Source: Rozella allomycis CSF55
Lineage: Eukaryota
DNA length: 58,164 nucleotides
Reading direction: 5' to 3'
NCBI GenBank assembly: GCA_000442015.1
Contig: KE560993.1
Span: forward strand, 1 to 58,164
The notes below the pieces were generated by a model. That model was not told the origin of the DNA, made no database searches, and worked only from the letters and a program-made list of their open reading frames with translations. Position 1 is the stretch's first letter. Each line of letters begins with the position of its first letter. Shown here in pieces: positions 1,935-58,061 of this stretch. A program made the position numbers and the translations under genes.

Positions 1935-2025
1935 CAACTTTTTAAATTTTCAACTTTTAATATTTTTAAATTTTCAACTTTTAATATTTTCAAATACTCA
2001 ACTTTAAAATATTCAATTTTAAAAT
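1935..2025. repeat. Degenerate ~24-bp AT-rich tandem repeat between the convergent CHZ1 and SPT16 genes
   Basis: aaattttcaacttttaatattttt-like unit repeated about 3 times. Confidence 0.7.
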
Positions 2026-2029
2026 TTAT

Positions 2030-5000
2030 TTATTTCTTGACCTTTTTTGGAACACTAGTTTTACCTAGCTAAAAGAAATTCAAATTAATTACCTTCCAAT
2101 AAAATTCTCTTCTTTTCTTTTTCCTTTTCTTCTCTTCTAGTTTGTTCTTCTAGATCATCCCAATCCAATCCATCTTCATCTTCCTCATCCTCATCTTCTT
2201 CCGCATCGTCATCTTCATCAAACTCTTCATCATCGTCAAAATCTGATTCATTTGATTCAGACTCGTTGAACTGCTCATCGTTGAATTCAGAGCCAGATTC
2301 AGAAGACACGTGCTCTTCATCTTGCTGCTCAACATCATCGCCTCTAGCGAAATTCCAGCCGCCCATTTCATAGAAACCAATTGGATCTTCTTTGACTACT
2401 TTTAAGAGATTGTTCCAGTTAAAGTTGACGGGTGCTTCAGCATAGGCGACATCCATGGAATCTAGCCAATCTTTGATGTGTTCTAGACTATTCATTGGGA
2501 TTGAATTGATGTGCACTGGTTGAAGATTGTGATTCTTAAAGACAAACACTAGATCAAAGTTCTTTAATCCAAACTAGAATTTGAATAGAGTTGAATTGTT
2601 ACAGAAACTCTTTCTAACAATGCTAATTCAACATCAGGCAAAGTAACAACGAGAAAAGGAGTGTCTGTTAAATGAACGAGACATTCAGTTGTTGGTTGCA
2701 TTAAAACATTTTGTCTAAAAGGAACTCCATTAAAACCTTATTTTTAATTGAAAGTGTGTGATTACCTAATTATTAAATGATCATCTTTCAATTACCTATT
2801 CTTAAATCATCACCTTTTCAATTACCTATTCTTAAATTATCACCTTTTCAATTACCTAATTCTCTGAATGGAATGTCAACTTCAATGTTGGATTGCTCCA
2901 TAACCTTTTCAGCAAATTGCTTAAATTCAGAATTGATTCTCGCTCTTCTTTTTCTTTCTTCTTGTTCTTGAATCAATTCATCTTCATCAGCGTAATTGTT
3001 TCTTCTCTTTCCTCTACCGCCAGTTTCATCATAACTCAAATCAGTCACTTCTCTATAAAACTGTACATCCTTTTTTCAACATTAAAACTAGTTAATTACC
3101 TTTGTCTTCTTTTTACCAATTAGAATTGGATTCTTTAAATGAATATGAAGAATAGCAATCAATTCATTATCACACGGCTGAAAGAATAAATGTTTAATAT
3201 TAGAAAAGATTAAATCCAACTTGAAATCTCTCTTAACAAACGAAGTAAATCTCAACCCATTCGAATGAATTTCAATAGACCCCTCTGATCTCTTTCCATC
3301 AATTGGTCTCACATAAACATCTTTTAACACCAACAATTTATTTTTAGATTCAATTAGTTTCTCTTGCTCTACTAGATCAGCCATTTCCTTCTTTTCTGTT
3401 GCCTTCTTTGTTATCATTTTTCTCAACTCGTTGATATCTTTAAACACTTCTGTTAATCTAATAACATCACTAGACTTGAATGATATCGTTCTAATGTATT
3501 GCAACACAAACTCTTCAACGGAATTCTCATTCACTTCCTTTTTCACGGGAGTATTAAAATTTATTCTCAACAAAATCCCATCGCCTTCATCTGACTTTGT
3601 CGCATTCTTGATCGTTGAAATATGAAATGGAACTGCCAACCCATAAATTGGCAACACTACACTCTCTGCTCTCTTATCTACAAAGATCTTCAAATTAGAA
3701 ACTTCTCGAGGCAACAATGCTTCTCTCTTGTAACTCTCAAAATTATTCATCTCTTCAACAACCTTGTTATTCTCTGAATTATTCTTCTTGTACAAACTCA
3801 ACATCTCCTTGTTCAATCTCTCATGCAACTCATGCTGATGCTCCCTCCTCTTGTTCTCATTCAACTCCTCCTTTTCTTCAGTCCTCAACTTACTCCTCAA
3901 CACCTTCGTCTTTGACACTTGCTGCTTCTCTTCTTGCTCCCCAATCTCAAACGTTATCTCTTTCAGTCTCTTTGGTGCATCAGTCAATATTATAGGCTCA
4001 GTTGATGTCACCTTGATCGTATCAGCTACAAACAACGAATAATCTTTCTAATCCAAAACTAAATTCATTACTTTCTCCTTGAATCTCTAAATCTTGAAAT
4101 CCAATCGCTAAATTCAAAGTCATTCCACTAACAATTTCATTCTCATTCTTTCCATTAATCGTAAAATCTCCTTCTTTAAATTCTAAGCCAATCCCAAACC
4201 CAAAATTCTTCACCAATTTACTCTTCAATTCTGGTCTATTCTTTTCCACAAACTCAACCCCCTTCATGTAAACATCTTTAATTAAAACCCCATCTCTTAT
4301 CAACCCCAACACATATCGTTGCAATTCAATCAGAAATTCATAATTCTCTTCTTGCTCCTTTTTCGGATCAACAAAAAATGTTCTGCCCAAATTACTACAA
4401 TAACTTTTATAGCGAACTCCCATAAAACATATTATCGTCCCAAACTTCATTATATCAGAATTAGAAACCGCACTAGGCTTCAAATTATACTTGCCCCCAC
4501 TCTGTATAACTGGCGTATAGCAAATATCCAAATAGTTCTCATCAACCTCCTTGTTCAACCGCAACTTTTTCCTCTTCTTCTCATCCACAAAATACCCCTC
4601 AATGTTCCCACTAAAATCTTCATGCTTCACATTCCTCTCCTCATCAATTATTCTCATCAAATCATTCACAACATTATTCTTCATCGCTTCACTAACAACC
4701 TTGGCTGCTATACGCGTATTATTCTACTCTCATCTCTGCAACCACATTACCAATCCCTCTTCATCCTTCACTGCCAACACAGTCGATATCCCAAACGTCA
4801 CATCAACCCGTTCAAACTCTTTCATCTTCTCAACACACTTGCCATACACACGTCCACTAAACACATCCTTATTCAACATCCCAACTACCCTCTCTCACAT
4901 CACCCCTAGCATCTTACCCCATTCCTGCTCTTCTTCACATACCCAACAAACTCTTCAAATATCTCCTCCTCATTGCTCCCATCCTTGGCCCGCTTCAACA

Positions 5001-5401
5001 ACACAACCGGTATCTGCTTCTCACTCATCTTCACTACCAACGGCTCCAAATAACTCGCTACAAATCCCCAAAAAATATCACATACCCTTCTTCTGACTAG
5101 TCAAAACAACAAACACATCGCCAGTCAAACACATAACTGTCTCGGGAAACTCGGCTCCAAACAGCCACGTCTACCTCCAACAATCAAAAATCATTTACCT
5201 GCAAACAAGTCGTCTTTTGGTATGGGAGCTCCTCATTACTCTCCCCTGAAGCTACAACCAGCGCATCCGCGTGGTGGAAATACACATCTTCAGACTCGCG
5301 ACTCGCATTCTTTGCTTAGTCAAACGCAGAATTACCTTGAAATGAGTATGCAACAGGCGCAGCCGGCGGTGGAACAGTTTTTGGTCGATTTGGAACGACA
5401 T
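2030..5401 (-). CDS. SPT16: FACT complex subunit Spt16 (multi-exon)
   Basis: Motifs [73 protein letters not shown] and an acidic tail; ATG at 5401 ([14 protein letters not shown]). Confidence 0.95.
2737..2855 (-). other. Composite 119-nt intron made of four abutting GTAAT...AG units (30/30/30/29 nt)
   Basis: Minus strand: G|GTAATTGAAAAGGTGATAATTTAAGAATAG|GTAATTGAAAAGGTGATGATTTAAGAATAG|GTAATTGAAAGATGATCATTTAATAATTAG|GTAATCACACACTTTCAATTAAAAATAAG|GT. Removal restores RELG-FNGVP. Confidence 0.9.
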
Positions 5402-5576
5402 TTTTAACAAGGGTTTTTGGAAATTGGAGAAATAGGAGCTACAGAGTGTAATGAAATTAAGGCTTTTAGAGGCTTTAAATTCTTAATGACATTAATTTTA
5501 ACTGTTAAATTTAATACAAAATAAAAAGAAACTAATACTTTGAATATTCAAATTTAATAAAATTCCTTCAAAATTC

Positions 5577-6191
5577 CTACCCGACCAAACCCATTGTGAA
5601 GGTAGAATCTACTCTGGAATCTGCAAGCAAAAGTTTAACAACATCTGCATGACCTTTACTAGAAGCCCACTGAATAGCATAATTGCCGTTTGCACTTGGG
5701 TCTACTCTTGGATCTGTTAAAAGGTACTTCACAATCTCAGTGTGACCATTTCTTGCCGCTAGTCTTATCGCATAATTTCCGTCTGCTGAAGGATCTGTCT
5801 GAACACCTTTCTTAAATCTAAAGTCACGGTCTTGAAAAAATTGTAAAAGATCACATAGGCACGCAAACTGAAATGCGTAGTTAACGGCTTTTTGAGAAAT
5901 GTCATGTTGTTTTAGGAAGTTTAAGAAATGCACAAACCTTTTCCTGTGCTCACTGTCTTTAAGGATATCCTCACAGATATTTTTCGTGAGCGAAATACCG
6001 CACATTTGTTTAATTCTATATTGAATTACGTATGGGCATTTCCATGAAATAATCATTTCAGGATCTTGATGAAGAATATAGTCCAAGATGAGTAAACGAA
6101 TGCAGCGCGATGTTCTAAACATTTGTTTCATATCATTTAGGCTTAAGTGCGATAAAATTACAAGCCAAACCTCATGCGGGAAATAATCCAT
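5577..6191 (-). CDS. Intronless F-box plus ankyrin-repeat protein
   Basis: N-terminal FPHEVWLVILSHLSLNDM (F-box-like); two C-terminal DPSAxGNYAIxxAxxxGHxxxVKxLL ankyrin repeats. Confidence 0.8.
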   Translation of the reverse strand: MDYFPHEVWLVILSHLSLNDMKQMFRTSRCIRLLILDYILHQDPEMIISWKCPYVIQYRIKQMCGISLTKNICEDILKDSEHRKRFVHFLNFLKQHDISQKAVNYAFQFACLCDLLQFFQDRDFRFKKGVQTDPSADGNYAIRLAARNGHTEIVKYLLTDPRVDPSANGNYAIQWASSKGHADVVKLLLADSRVDSTFTMGLVG

Positions 6192-6230: not shown

Positions 6231-6418
6231 GGTACTCCGGTGGTCTACACCACGATGCTTACAGGTGCATGGTTCGAACCCCACCCTTGTTTCCGAATTT
6301 TCTGGGGTTTTTAGGTTGAAGCAGGGTTCGACTCCTTGGTGATTTTGACGATGTGGATCCCTCATCCTTAATAAATACGATTATTGAATTAATTGTATAT
6401 ATTTAAAATATAAAAAAA
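6231..6418 (+). mobile_element. tRNA-derived SINE-like element, copy 1
   Basis: A-box-like GGTGGTCTA, B-box GGTTCGAACCC at 6271, second B-box-like GGTTCGACTCC, A-rich tail; homologous to 37433-37570 on the minus strand. Confidence 0.65.
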
Positions 6419-7475
6419 CAATAAACTTTCTTCGTCTAAAGCTGAAGTTGAAACTCTTTCCATTCAAATTAACGGCATTAGAATAAATGATGAAACAACC
6501 AAAGGAATATCAGCCCTCGTCTCATTTAAGAAATCTACAAGACTTAGACTAGAAATATTTGTACAGAATCATGATATTGAAGCAGTGGTTTATTATTTGA
6601 GTATATTATTTATAGAACTAACAACTTATCTACTAGTAGAGTACAATTTAGATGAGTAGGCGGTTTGCAGCGGAGTCAAAGAAGTGACAGAGTAAGATCT
6701 GGGACATAATCAGACTCCGTTGCTAAATACCCTATTATATGTTTATTGCGGGAAATTGTGCTTTTCGAATGTGACGGAGGCCAAGGTTTAGGTACTGAAA
6801 TCCTATCAGTTTAACTATTCGTATAGCGCATAATCATATTCCCAATTTCCTATGTTTTTAAATCAATAATTAGGAAAGTTATTCAATAATGATATTGTCC
6901 TATTGTTAAGTTTCCAACGCAAAGAAATGCAGTGCGAATATCTATTTCATCTCCACGTAAGGTTAGTTAAGGCTTAAAACTCCTCAAGCCAGACTTGTTA
7001 AAGGAATGTAAAGTTGTACAAAACATTCTTAAAAGGTATACAGATCACTTCCACCTCTAAGCACTTAATTTAAACAGATACATAATATCAATGAGAACTT
7101 TGATCACTTCGAGTTCTTGGAGAAGCTTGTTTTCTTAGTCCTGACACCTAAACGGACTTAAGTATTCATATTTTAATTTGCGGTGAAGGGTATAACTTTG
7201 GAATTAACGTTTTCGCAAAGGCCACCAGATATTGCTATAGCCTATAGTAAAGTAATTTGATTTTTCTAAAGCCTTAGTTTCTAGCTCTTTTAAAATTATT
7301 GCTACTCTCTCACAAATCCCTTCGATTTGCTCTTCCCAGTCTATTTATAGACCAATTAATTATGAATATTTGATATATTATTATTATGTAAAAAAATATT
7401 TATATTAGCCGTTGGCTTTAAGCTTTTTTTTCGTGTAACTCAATCTCCGTTGGAAAGTAAAAATTGAAGGTAGTT

Positions 7476-9548: not shown

Positions 9549-12500
9549 ATGCAGGCACTACAAATCCTCCAATCGGATTTGCTAGCCCTATCAAATGAAT
9601 CTCGGAAAAAGAACATTGAAATAAAACAGGTACTTTAAATCTGCATGCTGAACTAGGCGATAGAAAAGCTGCTGGTGCACCTGAAATCGGACGATCCGCA
9701 ATCAGGTAACAAACGCAGTCTATCTAAACAGACCTGTACGATGGATTTTTCAAGTGTTTGGAGAGCAAGAACGGCAAGCTTGTGTCTATTGCGATAACGT
9801 GCCTGTACAAGATATTTTCGAATGACCTATTTCCGCGGATTTTGGTAGGCTTGTGTTGTTGGTTGGAGGTAGGTTGATTTTGAGCGGTTGTTTGAGCTGC
9901 TTGAGATGAATTTGGGTGGGACTAGTGGGGAGGTTCAGTTGAAGGTTTTGCAGATCTTGTCGTCGATTGTAGCGGCGTGTGAGATTACGAGTGAGGAGAT
10001 GTTTGATTCTATGAGGCTTGTGATGGTGCTGCATGAGCAGAAGAATGCTGTGGTGAGCAATACGGCCAAGGCGTCGTTGAACCAGATGGTTATATCGTCG
10101 TTTATGCGGTATAAGAAGGATGGGGTTAATCGGGAGTTTGTGTTGATGTTTTACCAGGTAGAGATATGATTATGGGGTGAAAGGATTTGTGTGGGATGCA
10201 GGGGGATAAGGAGGCCAAGTATTTGAAGAATGTGAATATACCGAAAGAGCTGGGGTATGAGTTGATAGAGTCGATATTTTTGAATTTTAATGAATTGTTT
10301 GAGCAGGTAGAAATGTTTGTGGATGATGATAGAATGAGGAGATGGTTGAGTGTACGAGGAGCAAGTTGTGCCCATTGTTGGTTAAGGGGTTGAATGATAA
10401 GCAAGAATTTGGGATATTTTTGAGGATTATTAGATTGATAAAATTGTTTATTTTGTATTTTTCGAAACTGTTGGAGACTGAGAGTGAAATGTTTTTGAAT
10501 TTGTTGTTAAAAGCGAGTGGGAATGCAACGCAGCCGATGATGCAAATTTTAGCGATTGAAGCTTTGAGGGATATTTTCAAGTCTGTTTCATTGTAAGAAG
10601 GAGGAGAATAAATAATTGTAGAATGTTGTTCAAGTTGTTTGATTCAAAGAAAGAAAAGGTGCAAGTGTATTCGATATTTATGAAGAATGTGATAAAGAGT
10701 GAGAATGAGAGTGTTACATTGACATTTGAGAATAGATCTATTAATTTGTAAATAGATTTGGAATGGTTTATTCTAGTATAGATTTACTTGACAAGACAGA
10801 AGAGCCGATTGTGGGAGAAAAGGAGATAATATTTGCTTCTATTCAAGCAGTGATGGGGTTTGTTGATGTATATTATCAAGAAATAAAAACAGAGGAGGAA
10901 ATGAAGAGGGATGAATTGATAAAGATTTGTGGATTTAAATTGAAAAATAAAAGAGAAGAAATTTTGGAATTTTCAGAAAAGAAGAAATTAATTTCCAAAG
11001 TGGCTGAAGATTTAATTTTATTTTTAGAAAAGATTTGTAAAAATGAAATGGAATTGGGATTGTATAAAGATTTATTAGATTGTATTTATAAATTATTTTG
11101 TTTATTGATTTTCTATAAAGAAGAAGAATTTGGCATGAAAATATTAAACTTTTTGATTCCAACGATTGTAATACCTAATGAAGAATATAAAGTATTGGAT
11201 TGTTTGAGTTTGAAAAGTTTGTTGAATGTTAGATTGATTGTTTATATTGGATATACCCTTGCAGATAGATTAGAGGATGAGTTTGAAGTAATTTTTAGAG
11301 TTTTGTTTAAGATTGAAATATTATTTAATTCTAAAAATTGTAGAAAACAAACAAATGAAATTTTGAATGAAAATAGTTTTATTGAAGAAATTTCAAATCT
11401 AATTTTAGAATCATTTTCTGTAAATTTCGTTAAAATATTTTCAATTTTTACAAATTTTATTAAAAATGTTTTATTTTCAGAGAATGAATTTTCAGTTGTA
11501 AGAAATAATCAAAAGCGAGAAAATGTGACATTGTTGGAATGGTTGAAGATAATTTCATTAAAATTTTCATTTAAATTTTTGGATGTTAAATATGAACAAT
11601 CATGGAAAGATTTAATAAATTTGTTGAGAGAATTAGTTGAACATTTTGATTTGAATGTGAGAGAACAAAGTTATTTAATATTTCATGAATTGATATTTGA
11701 TATTATTGAGCAGATTAATATAGAAGGTGAGACTGTAGCACAAGAGAGTATTTTGATTGCAATGGATAAATTTAGTGATGTTGAATTGTTTGATGTTAGT
11801 AGACTAGTTGTTGATTCTTATAATAAACTACTTCAAACGTCTGGTCAATTTCTGTCTGTTGGATGGGATTATGTTTTATCTATTCTCTACAAACTATCTG
11901 ATGGTTCAAAAAGAGTTGTTAAATCTAATAAACAAAGTATAATAAAAACATCATTCCCCTGTCTTCAATTGATATGTACAGATTACTTGTCAAATCTGAG
12001 TAATGAAAGTCTTTCTAAATGTATTGAAATAATAGAAAGATTTTGTTCTAGTAATGATGATTTGAATATTAGTTTAACTTCAATTGGTTTACTTTGGAAT
12101 GTTTCTGATTGTTTAAAAGAAAAACCTTCAACTGAAATTTGGAAGAAATTAATTTTAAAAGTTTCAAATCTTTGTTTAGATTTAAGACCAGAAGTCAGAA
12201 ACAGCGCAATTCAAACTCTTTTAAGATCAATTTCATTTTCTTCTTCTCTTTTAACATCTGAATTATGGAATTTTGTTTTTCAAGATATTTTGATTTCAAC
12301 TTTAAATAAAATTCTAGTTTTAAAAAATGAAAATCCAATTCAAGATGAAAATTCAGAAATTAAATTTCATCATTCTAGATCTACTTTTGAAAAACAATTA
12401 GATGAAACAAAAAGTATTTTTCTACAGGGGTTGGGTAAATCTATTTCTGAAAATTTAATTCATTTAAATGATAAACAATTTGATTCTTTTTGGATTTCTT

Positions 12501-21507: not shown

Positions 21508-23203
21508 TTAAGACTCTTGCACAGTCCATGGCAATTTTAGAATCTCCTTTGCTGTTGGGCGTGAGTTTGGTTCCCTTTTTTGCTAAAGGAGAAATTTAAT
21601 ACTTTTCAAAACATAAATTCATTATTTGCTTTAAGCTATCTGAAGCATTGTCTGGTATATCAGGGTGAACATGTTTCCCTAGCTTGAACATCACAGCCTC
21701 TTGTATACAGCCTGTCCATGGATGGTTAGCAGTAAGCATTTCTATCAATACACAACCAAAACTCCAAATGTCAGTCTTTGTGGTTATTGATCCTCTTAGA
21801 ACTTCCGGGGCCATCCAAAAAACAGTCCCTTGGATGGAATGTCTGGCTTTGGAGCTTGCACCCAATTGAAGACTTAGCCCAAAGTCGGATATTTTAACTT
21901 GGCCGTACTCATTCAATAGAAAATTGCCGCCTTTAATGTTTGAAGTTAAACTTCACAATAATACAGTAATTCCAATAAAACAAAAAGGATATCTCTATGA
22001 ATAATATTTTGTTCGTGTAGATAAGATAGACCTGAGAGCATTTGTCTTGCGAAATTCTTCATTAATAATTCTTCAAAGGGCCCGCAAGTATTCAACAAAC
22101 TAGCGATTGAACCACCGGGAACATATTCTAACAGAATATTCAGTTTAGTTTCATCTCTTGTGGCCCCTATACTATTAAAGATTATAAACTACCTAAATAT
22201 CTGACAATATTGTCATGTTTCAATGTTTTCAAAACCTCGATTTCTTTCTCCAATGACTCAACCTAAAATTTTAGAGACATTTATAAAGTACTGTCTTAGT
22301 CTTTTGAATACAAGAGTCATTGGATAAATCTACCGTCTTAACTGCCATGAGGGTTCCATTTTCTGCATTAAGACCCAAGTATACGTCTCCAAACGATCCT
22401 TTTCCGATTTGTTTGCCCATTATCCATTTTATTGGTTTACCTACGTTCTTTAGTTTGTCTGAATCAATGACGACGCCTGGGAAATAACTGTCTAGCTGGG
22501 AATTTATTAACTTTGATGGCGGCCGATTAACTGGTCTTAATTTTGAATCGATCATAAAATCATCATCTGCTTTGTTATATTTGGAAGCGGTTAAGTAAAT
22601 ATCCAACTTTATAGAGTCATTAGAAAAAATTAACATGTGTTTCCAATCTCTTTCTCTTAAGTTATGTATCACTACGCTAAGAAACTAATTGATGTTACTG
22701 CCATCCTTTCTCATTATAAAGAATTGAAATTCTTTTGGGAAACTCTGTTTCTCAAGCACTTTGTTTAACGTTTCGTGCAGGTCAGAGTAATGGTTTCGTT
22801 CATACTCAAGTTCAAAGGAACTCGAAAGGATTGGCTGCTTGGAATGCCTATAAAAATTGACATTTATCAACAATAATTATACCAAATAAGAATTACTTTT
22901 TCTTTTTCTAAAGGGTTTCGAGCTTACTTGGCCGTGAGTGTTCCAACTTTTGTATTTTTGATTTCACAATATTATCAGCCATTAAGTGTTTTATCTCACC
23001 CAAAATTCTAGCGCAATGACCAATTTTCGAGACACCTATTTCTTTCAAATAATCGTAATCTAGGTAAGGCAATACATCTCCATCAATCATGTGATCTACG
23101 ACAAAAATGCTTACTTAGGCATACTTTTAAAGCTGTTAATGTGCATTTCCATACCAATTGATGAAATCCAATCAGCGACTTGAGAGCAAGTCCAATTTCG
23201 CAT
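21508..23203 (-). CDS. STE11: Ste11/Byr2-like MAPKKK with an N-terminal SAM domain
   Basis: SAM ([10 protein letters not shown]...IDGDVL...[11 protein letters not shown]); kinase [43 protein letters not shown]. Confidence 0.88.
21940..21992 (-). other. Probable U12-type (minor) intron, 53 nt, AT-AA termini
   Basis: CAT AGA G|ATATCCTTTTT...GTTTAACTTCAA|AC ATT AAA restores HRDIK; no single GT-AG intron does. Confidence 0.75.
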
Positions 23204-37703: not shown

Positions 37704-37776
37704 GCGATCATAGCGCAGCCGGCAGCGCGTAAGTCTCATAATCTTAAGGTCGTGAGTTCGAGTCTCACTGATCGCA
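37704..37776 (+). tRNA. tRNA-Met(CAT), elongator type
   Basis: Acceptor GCGATCA/TGATCGC plus A, D-arm GCGC/GCGC, anticodon loop CT-CAT-AA, T-arm GTGAG-TTCGAGT-CTCAC; T-runs downstream. Confidence 0.95.
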
Positions 37777-41032: not shown

Positions 41033-42794
41033 TTAGCCTAGATGAACATTTTCCGGGTTGAACGTGAACCCTTGAAACTTTTTCTGCAACGTTTCGCTTA
41101 GATGAGATTGATTTACAAAGCTATCGGCTGGAACTTCTTTTGTAAACTCCTCGTCGAAATTGCTAGTGTCTTTATCAGAAACCTACGTTGATCCTAGAAA
41201 TGTGCATTACGACTTTAGGTTTGAAAGGAGGTTGATACTTCTTTTCATTCAACTTGTTCCAATCAATGTCTTTGAAAAATTCATGTTCCTTAATTTCATT
41301 TGCTCCATTCGCACCTAATCGCTGAAGAGGGTCTCGGCAAAGCAACTTTAATGAGTAAAACAAAGATATACCTTAGTTAATAATGATTTAGCACAAGAAC
41401 TGACGTTATCGGGAAATTCCAAAGGGCTTTTGAGAATTCGTTGGTACATTTCATTTGTATTCTCAGAATAGAATGGAGGAAGGCCTACTAACATTTCGTA
41501 CAAGAGTATGCCCAATGTCCACCAGTCAACCTTTTTTCATACATTACGTAAAATTACTGCCATTGTATATCCTTCTCCTTTCAAAACTTCAGGGGCTAAA
41601 TATTCTGGAGTGCCACAAAAAGTATTTGTTTTCTCACCCTTTTCCAAATTCAATTTGCATAATCCAAAATCGCAAAGAGCAATATGACCAGTGTAATCAA
41701 GAAGTATATTTTCTGGTTTCAAATCTATTTACATAACGGTAATGACTTACCCCTATGATATATAGAAGACCAATTTACCGGTATATTATGTTAAATCCGT
41801 GCAAGTGCTCTAATGCTGAAAGCAGTTCCGCGGTATAAAATTTTGCTCTGTCTTCACTGAACTGACCTTCATTTTGAAGATGATGAAATAACTCCCCACC
41901 ATTAATGAAAGCGAGAACAAGATACAATTTCTCTGGTGTTTGGAAAGAAAACTTTAAATTCACTACAAAGGGATTGTCGATTTTGGCGAGTACATTTCTT
42001 TCGGCCAATGTGTGTTCAACCTCATCCCTTTTTACAATATCAGCTTTTTTGATAATCTTCATGGCATATATACGACCGGTGTCCTTCTTGCGGACTTGCA
42101 TAACCTAGTATGAAATAACGGAAGTGCTACTTTCCCAAATGAACCTTTTCCTATGACTTTTAATAAATCAAACTGATCAATATTCAAAGTTTTTGTCTAT
42201 TTTTAATTTTTTCTTATTTTACTGAGGGTATTTGATAGTCTATTTGGATGTGCATTTCAATGGTCGTTGGCTCAGCATTGTTTCCACTCAACTTACACCA
42301 TTTATTCATTTTTAATTTCTAATTCATTTTAAAATCATATTAATACTTTTTCGTCCACATCAGGAATGAATGTTGTCGAGCCCAAAAAGAAGTCCCTGCC
42401 TTCACTATTTGGCGCATACAAAGAAATAACAATCTCTGTTAATCTACTTATATCGCTATAAATAAAAAACATGATGATTACAATGATGCCTTTTGGTTCC
42501 ATAGGGGGCAGTTGCTTGCCCAAGATGTAGCGTCTATAACAATATCATTCTTGTCAAAATCAATGACAGCATAAGGAATGCGATTTAAGTGCTCTTTCGG
42601 ATAATTTTTTACTTCAAGTATATGAATTATAATGACCCCGCCTTCGTGCACAGACTTTTCAAAGCGCATTCATATATTTACTTGAGGCCGCTTATTGAAA
42701 GGCGGAACTACATTTTCTTTATTTGGTGATTGTAATGAGTTCTTCTTTGCTATATTATTTCATCTTTGAACTCTTTACATTTGAAAAAGTTCAT
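41033..42794 (-). CDS. YPK1: Ypk1/Gad8-like AGC kinase with a C2-like N-terminus
   Basis: [87 protein letters not shown] hydrophobic motif. Confidence 0.95.
41751..41752 (-). other. 2-nt microexon (GG) between two 26-nt introns
   Basis: TAC CG|gtaaat..atcatag|GG|gtaagt..aaatag|AT TTG gives Y-R-D-L. Confidence 0.85.
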
Positions 42795-44170: not shown

Positions 44171-44874
44171 ATGTCTTCGTACGATAAAATGATTGTTTAG
44201 AGGTAGAACTGTACAAAAATTAGATAACTCGTGGACTTTTTGGTTTATGCACCGAAGTCCAACCGCTAAAAATTTAACATCTAGTTATGGGGACAATATT
44301 AAAAAAATTGCTTCTTTCGACACGGTATTAATAGTCTCTTGCTTTGAATTCAGGTAGAAGGGTTTTGGGGTGTATATTCACATTTAAAGAGAGCTACTGA
44401 AGTGCCCAACATTACCGAATACAATTTGTTTAAGTCGGGCATTAAACCCATGTGGGAGGTACAGCATTATTAATTTATTTAAAAAGGTAATAACTTTTTT
44501 TATTATTTATATAAAGGATACCGAAAACCAGAATGGTGGGAAGATTATGCTTCGGCTTCGAAAAGGTGTTGTCACGAGATTGTGGGAAAAGCTGGTATCA
44601 TTATAATTGCATGAAAACTAGATACTTGTTGTTATTGGTAGTCAAGACCATTTTGCTTCTGATATTTGTGGTTTAGTACTCTCTATTCGACAATTTGAAG
44701 ATATTATATCGGTGTGGAATAAGACATCTTCAGATAAAGATCTTATCCAAGATTTAAAGTAAATACTCTATAATAGCCTTAACAAGAAATAAATTAGCTG
44801 AGTTATTAGAGTTGCCCAGTGGGACAATTGTTGATTACAAAGTTCACAATTCTCACCACAAAGATCAAACATAA
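44171..44874 (+). CDS. EIF4E2: eIF4E family member, class II (4EHP/eIF4E2-like); absent from the ORF track
   Basis: Spliced LDNSWTFWF, SYGDNIKKIASFDT|VEGFWGVYSHL, FKSGIKPMWE|DTENQNGGK, RLRKG..RLWE, ICGLVLSIRQFEDIISVWNK, YKVH. Confidence 0.88.
44459..44516 (+). other. Composite 58-nt intron of two abutting GT..AG units (28+30 nt)
   Basis: TGG GAG|GTACAGCATTATTAATTTATTTAAAAAG|GTAATAACTTTTTTTATTATTTATATAAAG|GAT restores WE-D. Confidence 0.85.
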
Positions 44875-45776: not shown

Positions 45777-46861
45777 TTATTCTTCGAAATCATCAAAACC
45801 ATTTTCGACAGGCTGTTCGTCATCATCTAAAAATGCTGATGAATTATCTGTTTTGACATTGTCTATAGAATTAGTGTCGTTGCTTTGTTGATGGTCTATG
45901 TCACTGTTCTCACTGAATGAGCCAAAACCAAATCCATAAAATGGGAATGGAAAGAACGATTGACCTCCCTCCCTATTTAACACTTCTAAATTTTAAATAC
46001 CTGGTGAAATAATCAAGATCTATTGCAGTTGAACATCCCAGAGTGACTGCCTTTTCTTCAAAGGTCAGTTCTCGACTTTGCCCGGGAATGTTTTTAAATT
46101 GAACAACATATTTTCCAGCATCTGTAAACAACTGATATATTTTTCTGAAAGTTTTTACTTCTTGTGCCAAATTTGTCCAATTTCTAGTGATATATGACAA
46201 TGGTTTTCCAACCTCATCTCTTAAAGTAAAGTCCCAGGCTAAAAAGCCTTCATTAATAGATGCGAATTGGTTATTCCTTTATTTAACCTTGCCAATTACC
46301 ATACTTGCGAAATAGTTCATATTTTCTCCTTATCAAGTGCCACTTCTGATGTATCAATCCAAAAATATTTCCATTAGTCCCATCTGTTACTGTAAGTTTA
46401 GAATTAATTAGAGTAAAAGGTCTGTTAATTTTCATAATAACATTTGAATTTAAATCCAGTACAAACGCTTCGAAAGGTCTATGGGTCCCTGCGATTTGTC
46501 TTGTAAACATTCTCCCAATAGTGTTTGACTCGATTATGTACCCCAACATCAAAAAATTACGGACAAATCAATTTACCTTGGCGTTTTGATCGTAAATTAC
46601 ATATTGATTGGCTTGATCAAACCCTGTAACGATTCTCATCCATTCAATTTGGCGACAAATCACCAGGACATCATTAGACAATATATCTGTTAAATTTGGA
46701 ACAGATTTAATTATATCCGTTTTTTTCTTTTCAGCAATATCCCTCGTCATTTTATTTCTCGCAATCCTTCTCACTCCTTGTATTGTTCGATCATCTTTTG
46801 TTTATTCATATATCGTGTAAGTACTTGATAAGTATCTACAGAAGATTTTGACAAACGTCAT
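45777..46861 (-). CDS. Scramblase-family protein (Aim25/PLSCR-like)
   Basis: RQIEW...GFDQANQY, LGYIIE, RQIAGTHRPF, RPFTLINS, WHLIRRKYELF, LAWDF, FTDAGKY, IDLDYFTR. Confidence 0.85.
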
Positions 46862-57101: not shown

Positions 57102-58061
57102 TTATTTTGCCCTTGTTCTGGGACGAATCTGTCGTTGTGCAAACTTTTTGTCGTTCCTCTGGTTCTTAAAAGAAGCCTTTTTGTTGGAAATTGGAAAATA
57201 ACGATCTCGAAACGCAGTAACCTTTTGCTTTATATTCTGGATTAGCCCTTTTGGACGTGAGGTTTTTGGTATATTAGTTTTTGGTGGATGGAAAGGGACA
57301 CCAGCATTCTGCGGTTGAAAGAAATGGTTTTGCTTCAAGTCCCAAGCTTTTTCTGCTTGATTTCCTGCTGGATTTGAAGTGGGCTGGAAATTTTTGGTGT
57401 AATATTCTAAAGGTGAGACGTAATCAGCTAACGGATTCTTTGGTGGGTTGTTTTGAAACTTCGGCGGAGGATAGGAATGCGGAGGAGTTTGGGTAGCACC
57501 TGGGTTTTTTGTTTGTCCATATTTTGGTGGGTTGTTTTGAAAGTTTGGTGGAGGATAGGAATGCGGAGGAGCTTGGGTAGCACCTGGGTTTTTTGTTTCT
57601 CCATAGTTTGGTGGGGTATTTTGAAATTTGTTTGAATTTGGGTGATTATTCGAACTTGGAAATGGTGTTTGACTACCGTCGGGAGTTGTACTTTGGTGAC
57701 CATTTTGTTGAGTTGGGGCTATTTTTATAGGGTTTTCCTGATATTTTATCATTTCATCGAACTTGTTATTCGCGATTTTATAGTATTCAGTTGCAATTGC
57801 GTGATCCTTATCCCAATTATTCCCTTCGTATGTTGCTCTCATTTTATCCGGATGATACTTTAATCCGTAGAATTTGCTCAGTCTCATTAATCCTTTTTTA
57901 TCATTAGGATCTATTCCAAAAAATTTAAAAGCCGATTCCATATCCATTTTTGGCATATTTTTGATGAGTTCCTGTCTCTCTTCAAAGGAAATTGTGTCTT
58001 CGCAAAGGCACATGCTAAGAATCAGTGTCGCACTTAGAGTTATCTTCCAGGAGATCCACAT
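57102..58061 (-). CDS. Secreted J-domain protein with Pro-rich repeats and a basic C-terminus, intronless
   Basis: Signal MWISWKITLSATLILSMCLC; AFKFFGI...LKYHPDK...YYKIA J-domain. Confidence 0.8.
   Translation of the reverse strand: MWISWKITLSATLILSMCLCEDTISFEERQELIKNMPKMDMESAFKFFGIDPNDKKGLMRLSKFYGLKYHPDKMRATYEGNNWDKDHAIATEYYKIANNKFDEMIKYQENPIKIAPTQQNGHQSTTPDGSQTPFPSSNNHPNSNKFQNTPPNYGETKNPGATQAPPHSYPPPNFQNNPPKYGQTKNPGATQTPPHSYPPPKFQNNPPKNPLADYVSPLEYYTKNFQPTSNPAGNQAEKAWDLKQNHFFQPQNAGVPFHPPKTNIPKTSRPKGLIQNIKQKVTAFRDRYFPISNKKASFKNQRNDKKFAQRQIRPRTRAK
57438..57626 (-). repeat. 84-bp (28-aa) tandem repeat, about 2.3 copies, in the J-domain gene
   Basis: FQN[TN]PP.YG.TKNPGATQ.PPHSYPPP unit; ttgaaa recurs at 57453, 57537 and 57621. 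Confidence 0.9.

Follow-up and report, generated by a model that had tools for sequence, protein, structure and literature searches.

The SPT16 gene of Rozella allomycis CSF55, a fungus-related parasite (and no ciliate) that uses the standard stop codons, encodes a subunit of FACT and lies on contig KE560993.1, which was analyzed here over its entire length, positions 1 to 58,164 (the window, 58,164 nucleotides long). Its coding sequence is split, within a conserved stretch of the protein, by 119 nucleotides (nt) that tile exactly, on the minus strand, into four GTAAT..AG units of 30, 30, 30 and 29 nt. We lean, with modest confidence, toward the reading that these 119 nt consist of four complete mini-introns of normal size, chained with no exon between them, and that the chain would be removed unit by unit in a form of recursive splicing. 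Stepwise removal is, we infer, the reading that best accommodates SPT16 together with two further composite loci of the window, in an eIF4E gene and in an AGC kinase gene.

The SPT16 gene occupies 2040..5401 on the minus strand, with its start ATG at 5401-5399 and an uncertain 3' end. A 309-residue exon (4026-3100) leads to a public protein of 1000 amino acids, P0001, which is 100% identical to it and is named Spt16 of Rozella allomycis CSF55; tblastn places this protein at 5401..2091. P0001 reads RELGFNGVP without a gap, from which it follows that the public gene model treats all 119 nt as a single intron. When 120 Spt16 proteins were aligned with MAFFT, the G column came directly before the F column; the junction is covered in 116 of the proteins (the region is missing in the other four). 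The whole of the 119 nt must therefore be removed. An earlier note on this DNA, made from its letters, had proposed that 119 nt split the conserved RELG|FNGVP junction, and both the public protein and the alignment bear this out. The upstream exon (2856..3069, minus strand) ends with AGAGAATTAG, codes for DIPFRELG and stops in phase 1, and the downstream exon (2603..2736, minus strand) starts with GTTTTAATGG and codes for FNGVPFRQ. By the logic of the reading frame, retention of any unit would lead to a stop codon: units 1 to 3 each open as GGT AAT TGA, and unit 4 retained alone would shift the frame into a stop. Elsewhere in the gene, the sense strand of the 5' part (3400-5100) is strongly C-depleted, with 7.8% C and 30% G, while the 3' part is ordinary in this respect.

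All four units lie on the minus strand. Unit 1 (2826..2855) follows the exon end AATTAG and is a 30-nt mini-intron of the form GTAATT..AATAG, with a donor of 6.1 bits and an acceptor of 7.3 bits. Unit 2 (2796..2825, 30 nt) differs from it by one base, at position 2808. Unit 3 (2766..2795, 30 nt) is a diverged copy that carries 3 substitutions and 2 one-base indels relative to units 1 and 2, and unit 4 (2737..2765, 29 nt) has the form GTAATC..ATAAG. At all three internal AG|GTAAT junctions (2826/2825, 2796/2795 and 2766/2765) a 5' splice site begins where the 3' splice site ends, so that the exon between them has zero length. The exact division into four units and the closeness of units 1 and 2, with unit 3 diverged, had both been described in the earlier note and hold on alignment. 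Across the chain the donors score 6.1-6.7 bits and the acceptors 5.4-7.3 bits, next to 6.9±1.6 and 5.9±2.2 in the training introns, a partly circular comparison that tempers the case for four full introns, as the scoring matrices were derived from 44 introns of the window that had been selected for a GTA start. When the interior of the 119 nt was shuffled, none of 20000 shuffles could be divided into 2-5 units of 20-36 nt with above-threshold sites (0/20000), under a null that takes no account of three of the units being copies of each other.

How does unit 4 relate to the other three? It had been described as unrelated to them beyond its ends. The shared ends are confirmed, the GTAAT start being common to units 3 and 4, but the remainder of that description does not hold. 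Over its last 15 nt, unit 4 agrees with unit 3 at 12 positions. In reverse complement it is similar to the 5' two-thirds of units 1-3, with 17 of 20 positions matching in the case of unit 2. Shuffled sequences scored as well as this reverse-complement likeness in 30 of 5000 cases for unit 3 and in 73 of 5000 for unit 1. It is possible that unit 4 is an older copy or, alternatively, that it derives from a templated repair event. Folding the chain with its flanks as RNA (139 nt) gave a 9-bp (base-pair) pairing between the 5' regions of units and unit 4, and it yielded no convincing bridging structure (z = -1.48; 16 of 200 shuffles fold as well).

The size of each unit takes its meaning from the introns around it. 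Intron length was surveyed within the 58-kb window by comparing 263 open-frame pieces with Pfam, linking neighbors of the same family and correcting the links by the ends of the Pfam alignments. This yielded 47 homology-flanked GT-AG units in 19 genes, the four SPT16 units included, and 46 of the 47 measure 26-31 nt, with a median of 28 (before this count, two SPT16 entries were set to 26 nt in line with P0001); the lone exception is 37 nt long and contains an N. Among all GT..AG candidates that bridge two open reading frames, the only peak lies at 25-29 nt, over a flat background. Introns of about 30 nt in Rozella S23 are also mentioned in a passage of PMC6349667. In length and in splice-site scores the SPT16 units resemble ordinary Rozella GT-AG mini-introns, and each has the normal size that had been claimed for it.

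Several candidates fell away in the course of the survey. Pairwise-linker introns of 109, 110, 59 and 70 nt were overruled by Pfam alignment ends and became 28, 53 (AT-type), 29 and 28 nt. Our own Viterbi gene finder was discarded as a source of intron lengths; depending on its penalties, it either strung genes together by way of spurious long introns or fused small ones. A pattern scan for further stacks gave candidates at 999, 1625, 19398, 23233, 26865, 31905, 39068, 5198 and 4917, which are exon or coding sequence, as judged by inspection or position. Its candidate at 2092, at the 3' end of SPT16, is a possible one. For this end of the gene (2002-2092, minus strand) the public model places a 23-nt exon between introns of 28 nt and 40 nt; the other possibilities are a 28+23+40 chain, or an intron of 24 nt after which the frame soon reaches a stop.

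Composite introns are found at two other loci of the window. In the eIF4E gene, on the plus strand, a mini-intron of 28 nt (44459..44486) abuts a second one of 30 nt (44487..44516). The exon that precedes the pair aligns to residues 46-80 of PDB chain 5nvk_A, a solved eIF4E-type-2 chain, and the exon that follows aligns to residues 81-106. The flanking exons thus abut at residues 80/81, and exactly 58 nt are therefore removed. The two eIF4E units are unrelated in sequence to each other, and 15 of 20000 interior shuffles could be divided into units with adequate sites.

In the AGC kinase gene, on the minus strand, a 26-nt intron (41753..41778) is followed by a 2-nt exon, GG (41751..41752), and by another 26-nt intron (41725..41750), the 2-nt exon being needed to restore the motif IIYR|DLKPEN. 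In the homologue P0132, aligned by tblastn, residue 335 ends at 41778 and residue 336 starts at 41725. The motif [YH]RD[LI]KPEN is contiguous in 112 of 120 homologues; the window's own AGC kinase protein is absent among the matches listed (120) of the protein search. A brute-force search found 26 + GG + 26 to be the only pair of GT-AG introns that gives IIYRDLKPEN, and it found no single GT-AG intron that restores the motif. Since the 2-nt exon is needed on canonical rules, the two mini-introns would necessarily be removed as two events, and the locus offers what appears to be the best available support for unit-wise removal at a separation of 0 nt. Gene predictors that forbid exons of 0-2 nt will mis-annotate loci such as this one.

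How might such a chain be spliced? The splice sites would be paired across each unit of 26-31 nt, that is, by intron definition. Excision of one unit would join TAG to the next GTAAT and so rebuild the same 5' splice site. By sequence logic the donor is indeed regenerated: the exon ends in TAG, the units end in TAG or AAG, and the context from -3 to +7 is retained. The series would end at the exon that begins with GTT, and the process would amount to recursive splicing with zero-length exons on a 30-nt scale. The 3' AG of each unit falls inside the donor window (-3..+6) of the next, which means that neighboring units would probably be engaged in turn and not simultaneously. An order from 5' to 3' during transcription would be the simplest, and any order would yield an identical mRNA.

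Alternatively, the 119 nt could be one intron that contains a 30-nt minisatellite, removed in a single step from the GT at 2855 to the AG at 2737, with the internal AG|GT junctions as passive by-products. This we consider rather unlikely, and several observations nevertheless weigh for it and against removal by units. A single GT-AG solution exists for the 119 nt of SPT16, and is the one the public model uses, and it exists for the 58 nt of eIF4E as well. At the AGC kinase locus, single deletions that restore the motif do occur, all with non-canonical ends (GT..AT and TA..TA). The case for stepwise removal is an anatomical one. Longer introns also appear to be present: in Table S1 of PMC8476143 the public annotation of the Rozella genome has 950194 nt over 20623 introns, a mean of 46 nt, and the window itself holds an AT-type intervening sequence of 53 nt and a candidate of 48 nt. 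Nor does a further argument of the earlier note, that the junctions are kept while the unit interiors diverge, survive; five differences that miss 7 of 30 positions are not significant (p ~0.24). Against a single excision stand the narrow length range of the homology-flanked introns, the full-strength sites on all four units, the strong internal AG|GT of the eIF4E pair, which is unrelated, and the AGC kinase gene, where any canonical solution requires two separate 26-nt excisions.

The two longer sequences of the window deserve a closer description. The 53-nt sequence (21938-21992, minus strand) splits the HRD|IKGGN catalytic loop of a second kinase and has no GT-AG solution. It starts with ATATCCTTT and can be read in the registers 21992-21940 or 21990-21938; TTTAAC lies toward its 3' end, which allows AT-AA or AT-AC registers. 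Its start presumably resembles a 5' site of the minor spliceosome, and the sequence is a candidate minor-spliceosome intron. An Rfam scan of the window found no small nuclear RNA, and its sole match was one tRNA gene (37704-37776, plus strand). The 48-nt candidate is the sole GT-AG link in a scramblase gene (46529-46576, minus strand) and conflicts with the Pfam alignment, which suggests an earlier start of the downstream exon, where no AG exists; an unusual 3' site or an error in the assembly could explain this conflict.

Because of the annotated mean, the 53-nt AT-type intron and the 48-nt candidate, a hard spliceosome limit of about 30 nt is unproven. The earlier note had combined such a limit with stepwise removal, and the two parts fare differently. 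Stepwise removal gains indirect support from the size of the units, their site scores, the eIF4E pair and the AGC kinase gene, whereas the limit is not established.

Where did the chain come from? Tandem Repeats Finder reports a 30-nt tandem repeat array at 2761..2863 (period 30, 3.4 copies, 90% matches), which takes in the final 8 nt of the exon upstream (AGAATTAG) and the GTAAT of unit 4, a point unmentioned in the earlier note. Because this exon end is part of the repeat, the duplicated segment spanned the boundary between the exon and the 5' splice site. SPT16 loci recovered from metagenomes are continuous across the junction in 80 of 80 cases and have no intron there; they are 36-58% identical, with no close relative among them. 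Since all 80 are continuous, the intron position is lineage-specific rather than old and shared. The locus thus displays what is expected of intron gain by AG|GT tandem duplication: a direct repeat, an AG|GT in each copy, inclusion of the flanking exon and absence at the same position in these other SPT16 loci. Birth of the chain by tandem duplication, as had been proposed, appears well supported by the array that crosses the exon/intron boundary and by the lack of the intron elsewhere. That the divergence of the units forms an age series is plausible. In this scheme a 30-nt segment, made up of the exon end (AATTAG) and the intron start (GTAATTGAAA), would have been duplicated in tandem at least twice. 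With an AG|GT of its own in each copy, each duplication would add one self-contained intron and leave the mRNA unaltered.

The number of units and the letters that tell them apart were examined in DNA-like contigs from four sequencing runs (X1, X2, X10 and X4), compared with the window. These contigs show no intron-sized joints in SPT16, and all behave as DNA. All window 31-mers over 2691-2900 are unique, so that contigs built at k=31 should run through the region. Three results count against the chain as it is written in the window. Long contigs stop at the repeat in two deep runs, at 2768 and 2847 in X1 and at 2768 and 2866 in X2. Columns 2779 and 2808 distinguish units 3 and 2, respectively, from unit 1, and at both of them X1 carries the unit-1 letter throughout (depth 272.6/272.6 at 2779 and 408.4/408.4 at 2808). 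The same is true of X2, at depths of 835.8/835.8 and 1334/1334. In X4, a 1643-nt contig that runs from 2785 into the gene keeps the window letter at 2808 and has four indels within unit 1. Record 12 of X10 (157 nt, depth 2.1) equals 2754-2910 with 0 differences and bridges the exon|unit 1, unit 1|unit 2 and unit 2|unit 3 junctions with more than 31 letters per side; it may come from the sample used for the window assembly. Among the contig records listed, the unit 3|unit 4 junction is not bridged with 31 letters on both sides. The abutting units are real; their exact number and distinguishing letters are without independent confirmation. It is possible that the repeat varies in copy number or in sequence.

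A second rival explanation follows from these reads, namely that the copy number or the differences between units are an assembly artefact or a polymorphism, with fewer or identical units in most nuclei, in the manner of a variable-number repeat. We hold this to be unlikely. It would account for the breaks of the long X1 and X2 contigs at the repeat despite the unique 31-mers, for the unit-1 letter at 2779 and 2808 in all X1 and X2 contigs there, and for the indels of the X4 contig, and the runs differ from the window at other places too (among them 3077-3091, 3952, 5078 and 5080). Against it, record 12 of X10 matches the window exactly and one X4 contig has the window letter at 2808, while short contigs of the unit-1 type may sit on the wrong unit at 90% likeness. 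Moreover, an abutting pair would survive even with fewer units. As a separate observation, the contigs of three DNA runs share readings that depart from those of the window at 3070-3099, 3952, 5078, 5080, 7897 and 7902; these differences could be assembly errors or allelic differences.

A third possibility is that the in-frame stop of each unit makes the chain a regulatory device: if recursive splicing were slow or incomplete, nonsense-mediated decay would adjust the output of SPT16. This agrees with the frame logic of GGT AAT TGA at units 1-3 and of the frameshift on retention of unit 4. However, any AT-rich intron that is retained can be expected to bring in-frame stops, and the recent, near-identical copies look neutral, so that we give it very little credence.

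Returning to a chain removed unit by unit, a broader proposal can be put forward tentatively, as an idea with a fair way to go before it would be the expected outcome. The major spliceosome of Rozella would measure about 26-31 nt, and longer sequences would be removable only as chains of mini-introns with exons of 0-2 nt. Such chains would grow and shrink by tandem duplication, as variable-number repeats of whole introns, and the long introns of the annotation would largely be unrecognized chains. Genome-wide, the lengths of long introns would then fall at multiples of about 28 nt, and AG|GTA would occur inside them. If the SPT16 units are spliced singly, no obligate recursive splicing on a smaller scale would have been described so far, and the case would come from a lineage adjacent to Microsporidia. 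They would also show an intron-length ruler at work, and provide a clean, recent case in which introns multiply because their own boundary is duplicated in tandem.

Three other features of the window were noted. The sense strand of Mon2 (9900-12100) shows C depletion on a kilobase scale (7.2% C, 22.9% G). At 5472-5738 and 6273-6539 the summed contig depth of the DNA runs reaches 8000-48000, where neighboring positions have about 250-900, and many contigs end loosely at 5607, 5654, 6263 and 6408. The pattern suggests a multi-copy element beside or inside an ankyrin-repeat gene. At 57439-57630 there is an 84-nt tandem repeat of 2.3 copies with 91% matches.

How do these chains compare with known systems? 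Searches of the literature on end-to-end or tandem introns, on 0-2-nt exons, on Rozella introns and its spliceosome, and on tiny-intron genomes, mostly at the level of abstracts, found no description of such chains, a point on which supplements may bear. The SPT16 chain would represent a variant both of recursive splicing and of the gain of introns through duplication that was not found described there. Recursive splicing itself was reportedly treated by Hatton in 1998 and by Burnette in 2005. Its form with zero-nucleotide exons, at ratchet points, is described for long introns of Drosophila and vertebrates (bioRxiv 10.1101/006163). As at ratchet points, each internal AG|GT in SPT16 puts a 3' splice site immediately before a 5' splice site, and a 5' splice site would be rebuilt when splicing occurs there. 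Ratchet points, however, lie in introns of tens of kilobases, as one or a few sites with a polypyrimidine tract, and recursive splicing serves such very long introns. The SPT16 chain, in contrast, totals 119 nt, and every segment of it is a complete intron of 29-30 nt, present in tandem copies and known from DNA only.

Stwintrons provide a second comparison. They are defined by an inner intron that interrupts a splice signal of an outer one (PMC9024468). The types [D1,2] and [D6,7] are described, the latter being a case of abutting donors, and small tandem duplications of donor sequence have been proposed to have given rise to stwintrons (PMC7138796). Like the SPT16 chain, stwintrons are complex intervening sequences of a fungal lineage, and standard splicing reactions, one after another, take them out. 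The interrupted signal of the outer intron makes the order of removal in a stwintron obligatory, whereas the SPT16 units lie end to end, each with an intact GTAAT and AG. No signal is interrupted, there is no outer intron, and any order of removal is formally possible.

As for origin, a model in which an AGGT segment is duplicated in tandem and an intron is thereby gained is attributed to Rogers (in 1989) and to Hellsten (in 2011). The SPT16 chain resembles this model in its direct repeat with an AG|GT in each copy, in an mRNA that would stay the same and in a position that is absent in other lineages. The classic form of the model duplicates exon sequence to create a first intron, whereas in SPT16 an existing exon/intron boundary would have been duplicated repeatedly, placing new introns beside the old. 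Tandem duplication is listed among the proposed mechanisms in PMC7138796.

Exons of 1 nt, supported by RNA and flanked by introns of ordinary size, are described in Arabidopsis and Fusarium (PMC4674806; PMC12940212). As in those cases, the 2-nt exon of the AGC kinase gene keeps a conserved motif in frame. In contrast to them, the flanking AGC kinase introns are 26 nt long and are predicted from sequence, and in SPT16 and eIF4E the length of the exon is zero. Finally, the tiny-intron genomes of Paramecium, Nyctotherus and others have introns of about 20-30 nt with a sharp length distribution, as is seen in Rozella.

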